From: Chloroflexota bacterium
GTDB lineage: Bacteria > Chloroflexota > Chloroflexia > QHBQ01
Length of the DNA: 49,487 bases
Assembly (NCBI GenBank): GCA_043754535.1
Contig: JAYUUN010000036.1
Location: 1-49,487, forward strand
Direction: 5' to 3'
This document shows, piece by piece, positions 39,801-45,800 of this stretch. How positions within the stretch are numbered: position 1 is the stretch's first letter; each line of letters starts with the position of its first letter. Position numbers: made by a program.

Positions 39801-42800
39801 ATCCAGACGGCATTTGGTAGTGTAAAGTAATAAAACCAGTGCCTACTACGTTGTATGTATGAGCCACGCGCCGCGCCAGCGCATGGGCCACCTTGCTAGC
39901 CGAAGCCACCCCGCTAGAGGAGCGCAACATGAGAGAACAGGTTGCCGCCGAACCGATCCCTCCTTCACTGACGCAGGAGGAGCTACCCAACTTCGATACT
40001 TTCTGGCTGGGTCTCGGTGCCTGGCTAAAGAAGAAAAAGCAAATCCGCCATTGGAGCATCTGCAATAGCTACTTTGACCGCGAGTTTGAGGCTAGCTACG
40101 ATCCGCACCGCGACGTGGTGAAGGTAGTAGATATCAAGCTGCGGAAGCGGTCGTTTCAAGTCATGTACGAGAACTGGCACCAGTATGTAGGACGCAAGAT
40201 TAGCCGCCGTGAACTGTGTAGCAAGGATTTTTTCACTGGCTACACGATCAGCATCATGAAGGAGTACTTCGACTACTTTGCCAGCATCCAGGGCCTGGCC
40301 CTGCCCAAATACGTGGCTGCGCCCACCAGCAAGAAGCCACTGCCCCGTCCGCTCAAGCAGCCTGACCAGAAGGTAGCATAGGCAGATCGACAGCGTCCAG
40401 GCAAAAAGTGGGCGGTTTGGGCTGCAAAAGGCTTGACATTGACCCTGCTAATATATTATAATAGGCCGTGCCGTGAGGAAGTTGCGAAAGCAAATTGCCT
40501 GCGGGAGTGGCTCAGTGGTAGAGCATCTCCTTGCCAAGGAGAAGGTCGCGGGTTCGAGCCCCGTCTCCCGCTCCATGATGGAGTAGATAGCCAGCCAGCG
40601 ATAACTTTCGCTAGCTGGCTTTTTTGTGCCGCCTATCAGAATAAGGCGATTGCTGTGGTCTCAGCAGGGGGCAAGTGGAAGATTTATGAAACGTTTATCC
40701 CCCTTTCTACCCGGTTATGGTATGATCAAGCAACGAGGTGGTGGGATGCGCCACCGACGTAGGACGCAGGCAAGTAGGAGGGTACAAGATGCAATTCAGT
40801 GGGTTGGTGATCGGCGGGGCGATGTTCCTGGCGATCTGGGGCGGCCATGTGGGGGTACGTTGGTTGGAGGCACACAGCGTGCGCGTGTGGCCCCCTGCAT
40901 TGCTGCTGTTCCTGGCAGGCACGGGCCTGAACCTCTACGCCCTGTTCGGCAGCCGCGACGTGCTGCCAGGCGGCTTGTGCAGCGTCGTCGGCTTCACCTT
41001 GCTGTGGGATAGCCTGGAGGTATACCGCCAGATGTGGAGGGTGCTGCACAGCCACGCCCCTGCGAACCCAGCCAATCCCCGCCACGCCGCCTACTTGGCC
41101 GCTGGCAAGGGGACACTGGTTGACCTGCTCAAGCGCGAACCGCAGGGCAGCCGCTACGAGCCACCTGCGCCCCAGGCCGCTGCGCCAGTGGTGCCGACCT
41201 TTGCTGCAAGCTGCCCGATCTGCCACGACGCGAGCTGCATCCTCAGCCAGCGGCGGGCTGCTGTGCTACGTCAAGATTGGAATGCCGTGCGGGGCTGGCG
41301 CACAACGGAGGTGCAGGCATGAACTGGGCTGCGATAGCTATGGGCTTCTTTTCACTGGGCATCATCGGCCTCGGCTTCTTCTGGGTGATCCGCATGGAAT
41401 ACTACCTCGGCTACCTCTGGTGGCCCTATGTGCTGGCGGTTGGGGTGCTGCTGCTCGGCGGCTCACTATTCGTCGCTGACGCTGGCTGGTCGGCCCTGCT
41501 CGGCATCTTCGGTGGCTCGGTGTTTTGGGGTGCAACGGAGTTGAAGGAGCAGGCAGTGCGGGCTGAAGTTGGCTGGTTCAAGTTCCGCAGCCCCAAGCAG
41601 GAGCCACCTGGGGTCGAGCGAATCAGGAAGTGGCACGCTCCGCACCTCTAAATTAGGCGAGAGGATTGGCCGTGGGCGGCTATGCAGACCAATAACGCAC
41701 TTTTTGGCGGCAACGACGAGCAGGTGGGTGAGGAAGAACTTTGAGCTAGCCCTCAACCTATCGCTCTTAGCAGTGCGCTATCTGCCTCCTATGGCCTGGA
41801 TTAGCTACGTAGCGGTTGCTGACTGGACAGGGTGATAGTTATGTGGTATAATAACGTTTGCGCCCGACTTTGGCGAGGCGTATTTGTGTTTGCATAACTT
41901 ACCAGTGGGGGGTGGATCGTTTTGCTGGATATTATCCTGCCCGAAATCGAACAGATCGTCACCGATGTGGATCATGCTCGCTTCAAGATCGAGCCGCTGG
42001 AGCCAGGTTGGGGTTACACGCTGGGCAATGCCCTGCGCCGCATCCTGACCAACTCACTGCCGGGTGCAGCCGTGACCGCCGTCAAGCTCTCCGCCGAACC
42101 GGGCGCAGATGGGCGGCTACCGCAGATCGAAGAAGATATCATTGACGTGATCCTCAACACCAAGCAGCTACGTCTGCGCTACCGTGGCGACCAGCCCGTG
42201 CGTGTTCACCTGAAGGTGGACGGCAAGAAGGGGTCGCTGACCGCCGCCAACCTGCAACTGCCAGAGGGGGTCGAGGTGATGAACCCCGACAGCGAACTAG
42301 TGCATAGCACTGGCAGCAAGGGGGGGTTGGAGATCGAGATGCTGGTACAGCAGGGCTTTGGCTACAGCCCAGCAGAGCAGCACGCCGAATACACGCCCTT
42401 CGATATGACCCCGATTGATGCGCTCTACTCGCCAATCCCCCGCCTCAACTACGTCGTCGAACACACCCGCCTCGGCCAGCGCACCGACTACGACCGCCTA
42501 CTACTGGATATCTGGACTGATGGTTCGATTGAACCGGTCGAGGCTCTGCGTCAGGCTGCCCAAATCCTCACCCGCCATGGGCAGATCGTCGCCAGCTTCA
42601 GCGGCACGATTGTCGAGGACGAGGTAGAGGAGGTGGAGGAGGTGCCGGTCACTTCGCCTAGCATCAACATCCCGATTGAGCAACTTAACCTTACCAGCCG
42701 CACCTTCAACGCCCTCAAGCGGGCTTACATAGACACGGTGGGCCAGGTGCTAACCATGACCGACAACGAGTTGCTCGGCCTGCGGAACTTCGGCCAGAAG

Positions 42801-45800
42801 GCGTTGGACGAGCTGCGCGAGAAGCTGGTTGAGCGGGGGTTGGCTGGCGAAGCAGCGGCTAACCCCCTGCGCGGTAGTCTCACCCCCATGGGCCACGAGC
42901 AGGGTGGTGACGATGATAGCGGCCAGGACGCGCCAGAGCAGACTACCAGGAGCAGCAAGAAGACGAGCAAGCAGGGCAGTCGCCTGACCAGCCTCAGCGA
43001 ACTCGCTACTCTTGCACCTGATTTGGACAGTGAAGACCAGGATGAATCAGGAGAGGACGAGGCAGACAAGGACGAAGTAGACCAGGGCGACGCAGAGTAG
43101 CATAGCAACAACCCAACAGCAAAAGCAGCCCTTTGCTATCCGCAGGGGGCTGCTTTCGTCTTCGCTCCTTCACCTACTGCTGTCGAACCCGCGGCGGCGC
43201 AAAGTCTGCGCTACCCTCCTCGTCATCCTCGTCAGGTGCTTCCTCGGCCTGTCGGTTCACTTCGGCTTTGCTGGCGACCACAGGCGGGACGATCTCGGCT
43301 ACGCTGCCGTCATCCTCGGTTAGCAGCACAGAGCGCGGGCGGCCACCCTCAGAGGGGCCGACGATACCACGCTGCTCCAATAGGTCAATCAGCTTACTGG
43401 CCTGGTTGAAGCCGACCCGCAGCTTGCGTTGCAGCAGCGAGGTGGAGACGAAGTTGTGCTTGCGGGCAAGCTGGATCGCCTGCTTCAGCATCGCCTCATC
43501 GGTCTGCGCCTCATCCATCGCGTTCGGGTTCGCCCCACTCTCGATCTCGCGCATCCACTTCGGCACCTCAACCGCCGTTGGGTTGACCCCAGTCTCCTCC
43601 TCAATCTGGCCTGCCATCTGCCGCCAGTAGATCACGATCTCGTCCACCTCCTTGTCGGAGACGTAGGTACCCTGAATCCGCAGCATCTTGCTATCGTCCG
43701 ACGCGCTGTAGAGCATATCACCGCGCCCCAACAGCTTCTCAGCACCAGGGGTGTCCAGGATTACCCGACTGTCTACCATCGAAGTGACAGCGAAGGCAAT
43801 CCGAGCCGGGAAGTTGGCCTTGATCAGGCCGGTGACCACATCCACACGGGGCGACTGGGTGGCTATGATCAGGTGCAATCCGGTAGCGCGGGCTAGCTGG
43901 GCGAGGCGGCAAAGGCTGGTCTCTACCTCCTCTGGGGCAGTGAGCATCAGGTCGGCTAGTTCATCAATGATGATCACAATATAGGGCAGGCTCTCAAGGC
44001 CCGCACTCTCTTTCGCCTCGTTGTGGTACTGCTCTATGTTGCGAAAGCTAACCACCTGGCTGCCATCCGCCCGCTTGTAGCCCTTTGCAAACAGCTTGTA
44101 GCGGCGTTCCATCTCCCACAAGGCCCACTTCAGCACCTCAACCGCCGTCAACTGGCGGTTCAGTGGCCCCTCCTCATCCTTGTCGCGCTTCAGTTCGGTG
44201 ACCACGGGGCGTAGCAGGTGGGGGATACCGTTGAAGTTGGTCAACTCCACCCGCTTGGGGTCGATCATCAACATCCGTAGCGTCTCCGGGGTGTGCTGAA
44301 AGATGAAGCTGGCGATGATCGAGTTGAGGCAGACCGACTTACCAGAGCCGGTGCTGCCGCCCACCAGCAAGTGGGGCATCTTGGTGAGGTCGGCAACCAC
44401 GGAGCGGCCCTGGGTGTCTTTGCCGAGCGGGATCAGCAGCTTGCCCTTGACGGCGGCCCGTTGGAAGGCTTCGCTCTCCAATGTCTCGCGCAGACCGACC
44501 ACTGAGCTACTGGGATTCGGCACCTCCACTCCTACATAGGGCAGGTTCGGCACAGGGGCTTCGATCCGCACGCTGGGCGCAGCCAGGGCAAGCGCGAGGT
44601 CGTTGGCGAGGCCGACGATCTTGGCGACCCGCACCCGCTCCAGCCGAGGGTCGCGTGCGCCGCCCACATTGCGGTCACCTGGGGCAATCAAGAACTGGGT
44701 GACGGCAGGGCCGGTGTTATAGCCAGTGCGGTCGTCTGGGGCGGTGACTGGCACGCCAAAGCTGGCAAGGGTGTCAATGATCGTCTGCAAGCGGCGTTGG
44801 TTGGTCACGTTGTCCACCAGCCCACCACTAGTGCGTTCGAGCATATCGGTGCTGGGCCTGAGCCAGAGGTTGTGGCTTTTACTGGCCGGGATGTTGAGCG
44901 GCAGTTGCGCTCCCGACTGCCCGTCGGATGGAGCGGGCTGGCTGGCAAGCAGGCGGATCGCTGGCTTTGCAGTGGCAAGCGGGTTGCTGGCCGCAAGCTC
45001 TGTGCTACTAGCGAGGTTGATGCTTGGCCTGCGGAGGGGAGTGGGTGGCTCTGGCACGTGATCGATGCGCTCGGTGGGGGCGAGGGCGCGGCTGCGGCTA
45101 GCGGGAGCGGGCGAACCAGGTAGGTCGCTGGTATTCAGGTCGCGCTCAAAGTCGCTGGCACTAACCCGTCCACCGGCACTGCGGCTGCCGCGCTTGGGTG
45201 CAGCGAGGGTTATGTCGGTGGTGGGGTTCGCCAGCAAGCGGCGGCGCAGCGAGTCTTCGCGCTCCTTACTCTTACTGTCCTGCAAAGGTGGCTCGGTGCT
45301 AGCAGCTGGCGGTTGCGTCGGCGACGGCCTGATAGCTGCCTTGCTGACCCGACCGAGGCTCCGCACCATGTCGCCGAGCGACACCTGGAAGGTGAGGATC
45401 ACCCCGATCAGCACGATAGCCAGTAGCAGGAAGAAAGCACCCGCTGCGCTAAACCACTCCTTGAAGTGGCCGCCGATGAACGCGCCGACGGCACCGCCAC
45501 CCTCTGTGCTAAAGGCGACATTAAGCAGCCCCTCAGCAGCGAGGACGAGTAGCAACAGGCCCGCCCAAGTTTCGCTACCTAGCCGCCGCTTGAGGCCACC
45601 TTGCACGACCATCGCCACCGCCAACGCACCGATCACCAACGGCAGCAGCCACGCGCCAGTGCCGAATGCTGCCTGCAACGACTGACCTACGCCACCTATC
45701 ACCGCACCATCCTTCGCCTGCAGGGCTACGCCGATTAGCACAGCGATCACGACTAGCACAATTGCGGCGATCTCAAGCTGCTGCTTCTGGTCAACCTGCA

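Follow-up and report, generated by a model that had tools for sequence, protein, structure and literature searches.

Two RNA polymerase alpha subunits with reciprocal loss of predicted beta- and beta'-contact segments across the Chloroflexota order QHBQ01

Genomes of the order QHBQ01 (Chloroflexota) encode two divergent RNA polymerase alpha subunits, one in the ribosomal operon (copy A) and the other at a separate locus (copy B), and each copy has lost conserved segments that the other has kept. Each copy appears to keep only one of the two docking surfaces, and the main polymerase is likely to contain an oriented A–B heterodimer in which A docks on beta and B on beta', which would have arisen by repeated parallel subfunctionalisation. 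The assignment of A to beta and of B to beta' is based on published footprints and on the roles generally assigned to alpha contact residues.

Copy B lies in the window, i.e., the whole 49,487-nt stretch of DNA that was analysed (contig JAYUUN010000036.1, assembly GCA_043754535.1), and copy A lies on another contig of the same genome. The features are as follows.

41824..41852, + strand: sigma-70-type promoter-like site with an extended -10 (TGGACA-17-TATAAT, 11/12 consensus matches)
41907..41915, + strand: G-rich Shine-Dalgarno sequence preceding the non-ATG start
41922..43100, + strand: copy B, the second rpoA and the predicted alpha-II on beta', an intact 392-aa ORF with the start codon TTG
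41922..42599, + strand: alpha N-terminal (dimerisation and assembly) domain (NTD) of copy B, residues 1–226
42006..42041, + strand: start of helix H1, in which E. coli position 35 is Trp and Arg44/Arg45 are kept
42090..42146, + strand: replaced beta-contact segment (E. coli 62–80), with His66, Glu67, and Tyr/Phe68 gone
42393..42407, + strand: equivalent of Ile168/Gly169, lost in second copies
42459..42500, + strand: retained loop (E. coli 188–201), a predicted beta' contact
42651..42830, + strand: alpha C-terminal domain (CTD) of copy B (PF03118), residues 244–303
42846..43097, + strand: acidic low-complexity C-terminal tail, 84 aa with 23 Asp/Glu
C9:42081-43112 (another contig), - strand: operon rpoA (copy A), 343 aa, flanked by rpsD and rplQ

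Copy B contains the RNA_pol_L, RNA_pol_A_bac, and RNA_pol_A_CTD domains and scored 274 bits against TIGR02027, above the rpoA cut-off of 227.8, which copy A also exceeded; by the family models of ordinary bacterial RpoA (TIGR02027, PF01000, PF01193, and PF03118), both copies are thus family members, and B has the fold. An AlphaFold2 monomer model of the copy B NTD had a mean pLDDT of 88.1, which dropped to 69 at residues 61–70, and a Foldseek comparison with solved alpha chains gave TM scores of 0.77–0.88, with the monomer fold fitting alpha-I and alpha-II chains equally and hence not discriminating between them. The two copies shared 40.5% identity over 304 aa, in agreement with the 41% given in an earlier note on this DNA, and no third rpoA was detected in this genome with tblastn. 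The CTD is kept in both copies, as that note had also stated: among the second copies, R265 and N268 occurred in 35/36 and N294, G296, and K298 in 34/36, the exceptions being proteins cut by contig ends. The length of the C-terminal tail differs widely from family to family.

Two rpoA matches were found in 32 of the 40 genomes of the order, including 11/11 genomes at least 90% complete and 27/27 at least 83% complete; the other eight were 62–81% complete. Operon copies adjoined rpsD, rpsK, or rplQ in 35/35 cases and second copies in 0/36, so the second gene stands apart from the ribosomal operon throughout the order, as originally reported. None of the genes around other second copies recurred at the window's locus or in all of the three families, and clusters recurred mainly inside family f2. 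The genome analysed here (G000) had one rpoB match and one rpoC match (beta at C23:9385-13158 and beta' at C23:4798-9294), which rules out a second polymerase in it; G032 had two full domain matches to rpoB and G035 one extra, partial match. In a phylogenetic tree, A and B each formed one clade (support 98 and 99) with matching branching by family, indicating joint vertical inheritance. This shared branching and the low contamination of G000 (0.72%) rule out an assembly or contamination artefact, and a pseudogene is ruled out by dN/dS over 11 genome pairs (0–0.10 for A and 0–0.19 for B), which indicates purifying selection on both copies.

The motifs were compared in all 71 matched copies from the order (35 operon and 36 second copies), with numbering taken from the retrieved E. 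coli rpoA sequence; the operon copy of G026, which has an in-frame stop, was excluded from per-column counts upstream of position 63. The reciprocal loss, previously seen in an alignment of 15 sequences, held in every copy: the HEF[ST] motif occurred in 35/35 operon copies and 0/36 second copies, and the TR(V/L/I)GxxT/VxY/FDR/KL loop in 0/35 and 36/36, respectively. In contrast, all 57 single-copy alphas carried both motifs. The lost segments correspond to E. coli positions 61–68 and 78–80 in second copies and 190–199 in operon copies, and among 110 conserved NTD positions, A had lost 7 and B had lost 15, with no overlap. The length of the loop was changed in 29/35 A copies (by up to +27 residues, giving 14 to 44 residues) and in 0/36 B copies, which have the normal 17 residues, and its column invariance was 0.50 in A versus 0.91 in B. 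Position 35 was Trp in 36/36 second copies and Y/F in 57/57 single-copy alphas. Gly169 was replaced in second copies by Asp (35/36) or Glu (1/36), and the Ile168/Gly169 site presumably contacts beta in alpha-I; N41, T134, I168, G169, E29, and R191 are likewise residues to which we take alpha-I or alpha-II roles to be assigned.

In E. coli, beta protects alpha residues 65–75, and beta' protects 175–185 and 195–210 (PMC3294249). The retention of conserved sites in 65–75 was 0.98 in A and 0.06 in B, and for 195–210 the values were 0.66 (A) and 0.93 (B); segment 175–185 was better retained in A, at 0.95 against 0.70 for B, which counts against the proposed orientation, and segment 30–55 was not discriminating (0.85 versus 0.80). 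The earlier placing of the loop in the beta'-contact region needs one correction: its C-terminal half (196–200) is the only part within the protected segment 195–210, and residues 191–193 fall between the two protected segments. In E. coli alpha, a two-residue insertion at position 200 blocks beta' binding, and Arg45 is required only on the beta-binding alpha. Arg45 was kept in 33/36 second copies and was Lys in the other 3, from the sister genus, extending what had been noted for fewer sequences; this retention is an unexplained point against the oriented heterodimer. Of the homodimer-cluster residues 35, 38, 39, 46, 50, and 227, A was altered at 35 and 38 in families f2 and f3 and mostly unaltered there in f1, and the others were kept. 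In the window's own family, T38 was unchanged in both copies and Y35 in 4/5 A copies, so homodimers may still form.

We propose that a duplication of rpoA took place in the ancestor of the order or close to it. A normal core enzyme holds two identical alphas in different places, with alpha-I docking on beta and alpha-II on beta', and these two tasks would have been divided between the copies: the operon copy would have kept the beta-facing surface while its beta'-facing loop was left to decay, and in the second copy the loop would have been retained and the surface for beta lost. An A–B heterodimer with a single beta and beta' would then form the main polymerase, requiring both genes. Both proteins are probably made, A and B would dimerise with each other and each bind its own large subunit, and homodimers would be poor; the orientation and the obligate formation of the heterodimer are likewise inferred.

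The strongest support for the orientation comes from the Francisella and Chloroflexus pairs, which show the same split, a point that the earlier note had overlooked. The Francisella alpha1–alpha2 pair is a proven heterodimer in which alpha1 binds beta and keeps Arg45 (PMC3294249). As in the order, Francisella has a pair of rpoA genes of which one lies in the ribosomal operon (PMC3294249; PDB 6WMP), and inspection by eye of the supplement of PMC3294249 showed that alpha1 has HEYS without the loop and alpha2 has the loop without HEY. The Francisella operon copy resembles that of the order, with HE(Y/F)S and Arg45 present and the 190–200 loop absent, and the other copy is reversed. A and B scored crosswise against the 6WMP alpha1 and alpha2 chains (A, 146 and 91.8 bits; B, 89.1 and 134 bits; single-copy control, 150.8 and 128.7 bits), although these scores, the motif counts, the segment retention, and the parallel losses largely re-measure the same residues. 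G000 shares with Francisella two divergent rpoA genes beside a single rpoB and rpoC, and the reciprocal loss of the 65–75 segment and the 190–200 loop. In contrast, Arg45 is Gln in Francisella alpha2 and is mostly kept in the predicted beta'-facing copies of the order; because of this, the pair is classed as working like the Francisella system and as having arisen separately, rather than as a member of its family. Francisella is one genus of another phylum, whereas the arrangement described here spans a whole order.

Among the Chloroflexaceae (family f9), which belong to the same class as the order, 23/32 genomes have two rpoA copies. One copy has HEF in 11/11 cases and has lost the loop (R191 in 1/11), and the other has the loop in 9/9. 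The arrangement is a mirror image of that in the order, since the loop-keeping copy sits in the operon, and the erosion of HEF in this copy is partial (H66 in 4/9). Chloroflexus itself is a harmless cultured organism. The rows of genus g20 matched, by eye, the Chloroflexus rows of PMC3294249, where the two copies were described in 2011 as possibly functionally equivalent. Of A's 7 lost positions, 5 are common to the Chloroflexaceae non-operon copies (0.8 expected), and 8 of B's 15 are common to the second copy of genome G181 (2.1 expected), with 0–2 shared in the cross comparisons; the Fisher p values (2e-4 and 6e-5) overstate the significance because largely the same residues are measured again and neighbouring positions are not independent.

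Upstream of copy B, a promoter-like search found 2 sites versus 0.4 in shuffled sequences, and similar TGn-TATAAT-like sites were seen by eye upstream of many other second copies, suggesting that copy B may have its own promoter. All 36 second-copy upstream regions had a GTG or TTG start after a G-rich element, mostly GGGGGTG. Such separate expression signals would also fit a non-obligate split, in which A–A is the basal form and B an optional alpha-II under some conditions, yielding polymerases that differ in their CTDs and regulator contacts. We regard this as unlikely. In its favour, every A copy retains Lys86 and Val173, the mutagenesis-defined beta' determinants, segment 175–185 is kept in A, the CTDs of A and B are 50% identical, and Francisella alpha1 alone gives low activity (PMC3294249). 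However, B is present in every genome at least 83% complete under a constraint equal to A's, the loop of A varies freely and carries long insertions, the promoter-like site of B is of the housekeeping type, and R191C by itself destabilises the E. coli enzyme, according to a passage of PMC8092217.

For Chloroflexus, PMC3294249 took the paralogues to be interchangeable, with surfaces that diverged neutrally or were offset by changes in beta and beta'; that reading is very improbable here. R44/R45 (mostly) and K86 are present in both copies, as are the fold and the CTD, but the losses are fixed, non-overlapping, recurrent in separate lineages, and absent from the single-copy alphas. Furthermore, K370, W409, D410, and E443, which we take to be the beta' partner residues of alpha, are unchanged in this genome.

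We give hardly any credence to B acting outside the core enzyme (e.g., as a decoy or regulator via its CTD) or having been acquired from a distant lineage by transfer. The branch of B is long and of unsettled position, near the root with the E. coli outgroup, and its neighbourhood differs between families. However, in a tree with 19 other-class rows (4/20 other-class loci, L201, L209, L210, and L215, were left out of the parse), it fell among class members at the open fork where A also lies (support 82), a tree with A and B as a single clade scored slightly above the unconstrained one (lnL +1.64, p-AU 0.618), GC3 was 0.75 versus 0.74 between the copies, and A's loss of precisely the loop that B retains would be left unexplained. 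Codon adaptation was uninformative (0.61–0.69 for every gene compared). 

A single origin of both copies within the order is compatible with the AU test. The same test rejected orthology through a duplication shared with the Chloroflexaceae (p 0.005–0.023), whether A was grouped with their non-operon copies (p 0.0046) or B with their operon copies (p 0.012) or non-operon copies (p 0.023), and the separate origin from the Chloroflexus-type duplication claimed before is thereby supported.

New here are the finding of the same split in the Francisella pair, the crosswise scores of A and B against Francisella alpha1 and alpha2, and the split in the Chloroflexaceae pairs, with the operon position swapped. 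On balance, we lean towards the view that an obligate, oriented alpha-I/alpha-II split is a repeatable bacterial path, taken independently in Francisella, this order, and the Chloroflexaceae and begun in G181, with the same residues lost whichever copy is in the operon and with graded intermediates in the Chloroflexaceae. The same division of labour has apparently evolved separately in other bacteria, and it echoes archaea and eukaryotes: passages of a 2026 review (PMC13374769) describe Rpo3/Rpo11 and Rpb3/Rpb11 as a symmetric scaffold duplicated into an asymmetric pair, whereas both copies here have a full NTD and CTD, with no size reduction and no extra subunit. The review assigns the alpha homodimer to bacteria and the heterodimer to archaea and eukaryotes, and the word Francisella is absent from its main text. 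In these lineages, rpoA is not a single-copy marker. If the proposed split is true, each promoter-facing alpha-CTD would have a gene of its own and could specialise, and the Chloroflexus polymerase would be heterodimeric, against the 2011 reading, a published statement (PMC3294249) that the case challenges and that is testable in Chloroflexus. The lists of lost residues also serve as a natural guide to which contacts belong to alpha-I and which to alpha-II. With a separate case that spans an order, and its mirror image with intermediates within the same class, the transition from homodimer to heterodimer, which underlies Rpb3/Rpb11, would become observable in replicate.

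RNA polymerase alpha subunits are encoded at two loci in this genome (G000):

Window 41922–43100, + strand: second, non-operon RpoA (copy B), 392 aa, with N-terminal domain (NTD) and C-terminal domain (CTD) matches and an acidic tail.
Contig C9 of G000: operon RpoA (copy A), 343 aa, within the run rpsM-rpsK-rpsD-rpoA-rplQ.

The two proteins were 40.5% identical over 304 aa, and rpoB and rpoC each gave one match in G000. The proposal that the duplication extends throughout the order that the earlier note names QHBQ01 was borne out: two PF01000 matches were present in 32 of 40 order genomes, including all 27 with at least 83% completeness, and the eight genomes without two matches were 62–81% complete. 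The neighbors rpsD, rpsK, or rplQ lay beside 35/35 A copies and 0/36 B copies. Two family-f3 genomes had a second rpoB-domain match (G032:C3:398117–399241, nearly full length, and G035:C43:9734–10606). The B gene of the window is solitary, with a convergent ftsK on one side and a pair of DUF4491 genes on the other, and a near-consensus promoter-like site, detected by sequence match, precedes it; the DUF4491 genes lie in tandem immediately 5′ of this site (40738–41651, + strand). A putative hairpin (GCGCC..GGCG) was seen by eye in the leader at 41858–41885 (+ strand), as was a similar sequence in G036, G037, G038, and G039. All 36 B copies (L032–L066 and that of the window) start with GTG or TTG behind a G-rich Shine-Dalgarno sequence, and the A copy of G000 also starts with GTG. 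The B copies of family f1, to which G000 belongs, share the motif RLTSLS.LA in the variable tail (window 42960–43020, L049, L059, and L064). Elsewhere in the window, a TsaD of 929 aa (34829–37618, + strand; TIGR03723 over cut-off) is interrupted by two low-complexity Pro/Asp/Glu/Ser/Gln-rich insertions of ~75 and ~480 aa, in which no Pfam match was found at E up to 1.

When all 71 matched order copies were extracted (35 A and 36 B), the complementary losses described in the earlier note held without exception: the HEF[ST] motif, in the predicted beta-contact segment, was kept in 35/35 A and 0/36 B copies, and the TRxG..YDRL loop, the predicted beta′-contact segment, in 0/35 A and 36/36 B copies. 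Without the four A and three B rows from unpublished genomes (G002, G003, G004, and G027), the counts were 31/31 A and 33/33 B. Neither motif was lost in any of 57 single-copy control alphas. Of these controls, 40 came from the class, in whose sample 106 genomes had a single copy, and 17 from other classes (G193 unpublished; 20 other-class loci were fetched and 4 were not parsed). Conservation in ≥90% of the 57 controls defined 110 NTD positions (E. coli numbering). Of these, A had lost 7 (35, 38, 155, 191–193, and 223) and B had lost 15, including 41, 66, 68, 77, 79, 134, 168, and 169; no position was lost in both. The loop at 185–201 was 17 residues long in 36/36 B copies and 39/40 class single copies, and 14–44 residues in A. 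Family-f2 operon copies (e.g., L005 and L009) carry an acidic 16–27 aa insertion inside the lost loop and, in two copies, acidic C-terminal tails of 119–146 aa, the whole alphas reaching 445–476 aa. The operon rpoA L030 (G026:C5) is interrupted by a single in-frame TAA at about codon 62, and G026 also has a short rpoC frame (664 aa); both are probably assembly errors. We take N41, H66, Y68, D77, T134, I168, and G169 to be contacts of alpha-I with beta, and E29, R191, E193, and T196 to be contacts of alpha-II with beta′.

According to PMC3294249, E. coli alpha is protected by beta at 30–55 and 65–75 and by beta′ at 175–185 and 195–210, and it fails to bind beta′ when it carries an insertion at position 200; R191C destabilized the E. 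coli enzyme (PMC8092217). Retention of conserved sites was 0.98 in A versus 0.06 in B at 65–75, 0.66 versus 0.93 at 195–210, and 0.34 versus 0.90 at 186–194, which lies outside the published footprints. Two segments count against a split of this kind, namely 175–185 (A 0.95, B 0.70) and 30–55 (A 0.85, B 0.80).

An alpha1-alpha2 heterodimer is known from Francisella; it binds beta through alpha1, alpha1 alone having low activity and alpha2 alone none (PMC3294249). In the supplement alignment of that paper, inspected by eye, Arg45 and HEYS..KEDV are present in the operon copy, whose loop is shortened and unrelated, whereas the non-operon copy keeps the loop and has lost HEY and Arg45. Against the alpha1 and alpha2 chains of PDB 6WMP, A scored 146 and 91.8 bits, B 89.1 and 134, and one single-copy control 150.8 and 128.7; these crosswise scores re-measure the motif residue evidence, yet they link A with alpha1 and B with alpha2.

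Both copies are maintained: dN/dS was 0.01–0.10 for A and 0–0.19 for B (11 genome pairs, simple counting method), and, as had been proposed, the alphaCTD is kept in each, with R265, N268, N294, G296, and K298, which are presumably DNA-binding, retained by A and B. We consider it most likely that the two assemble as an oriented A-B heterodimer in which A faces beta and B faces beta′; it would have arisen by complementary degeneration, with the alpha jobs split so that A keeps the beta side and B the beta′ side. The main doubts are that Arg45 is kept in 33/36 B copies, that K86 and V173 are kept in all A copies, and that the homodimer residues are little changed in the family of G000. A non-obligate form, in which A-A dimers would work weakly, seems unlikely. 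The alpha heterodimer is a kind already known from Francisella, and the order's pair would be an independently evolved new case. Further cases were predicted by PMC3294249, the only relevant paper found; neither the order's pair nor a reciprocal split in Chloroflexus was found in the open full-text literature, outside which most subscription papers lie.

Quick trees without bootstrap were built from alignments lacking the two trait segments; B forms a long branch in them. In the 84-row tree, A and B were each a clade (support 98 and 99) with the same branching (f1 versus f2 + f3), and both copy types of Chloroflexaceae (f9) fell in a separate clade (99). In AU tests, for which the groups were chosen with the first tree already in view, A and B as one clade was not rejected (lnL +1.64, p-AU 0.618, 44 rows). 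Three groupings with f9 were rejected: its non-operon copies together with A (p 0.0046) or with B (p 0.023), and its operon copies together with B (p 0.012), in agreement with the earlier suggestion that the pair arose apart from the Chloroflexus-type duplication. After the addition of other classes, the fork that holds B, A, f5, f8, and an f6 + f9 clade stayed open (support 82). There is good support for separate origins of the two pairs but not for the exact node of the order's duplication.

Because rows of families f9, f10, and f13 match by eye the Chloroflexus, Herpetosiphon, and Roseiflexus rows in the supplement of PMC3294249, the class is inferred to be Chloroflexia. In the class sample outside the order, two copies occurred only in f9 (23/32 genomes); of the other 98 genomes, 97 had one match and 1 had none. 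Chloroflexaceae mirrors this order, with the loop-keeping copy in the operon and the HEF-keeping copy outside. Among nine full pairs and two extra non-operon copies, non-operon copies had H66-E67-F68 in 11/11 and R191 in 1/11, and operon copies had R191, G193, T196, and D199 in 9/9, with graded erosion at H66 (left in 4/9) and F68 (5/9). One f9 pair scored 137.5/88.9 (non-operon) and 130.2/123.7 bits (operon) against 6WMP alpha1/alpha2. The 2011 paper described the Chloroflexus pair as without drastic substitutions and possibly equivalent (PMC3294249); its own alignment displays the reciprocal split.

Two matches were found in 1/231 genomes of other classes:

Loci L133 and L135 (contigs G181:C46 and G181:C20): rpoA copies of G181.

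The G181 non-operon copy has lost N41 and HEF and kept the loop, and little is missing from the operon copy of this genome; the pair may represent the beginning of such a split. Positions lost in A were also lost in f9 non-operon copies at 5/7 (0.8 expected), and those lost in B at 8/15 in the G181 non-operon copy (2.1 expected) and at 5 in operon copies of the Chloroflexus-like genus g20 (1.5 expected), the cross comparisons sharing 0–2; the p values for these overlaps overstate their significance, since neighboring positions do not change independently of one another. Among the 150 best representatives, P0012, P0111, P0045, and P0127 are further alpha-like proteins without HEF, and P0012 and P0111 were placed inside a clade of families f34, f38, and f52. 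The parallel cases in Francisella, Chloroflexaceae, and G181 add to the interest of the order's pair.
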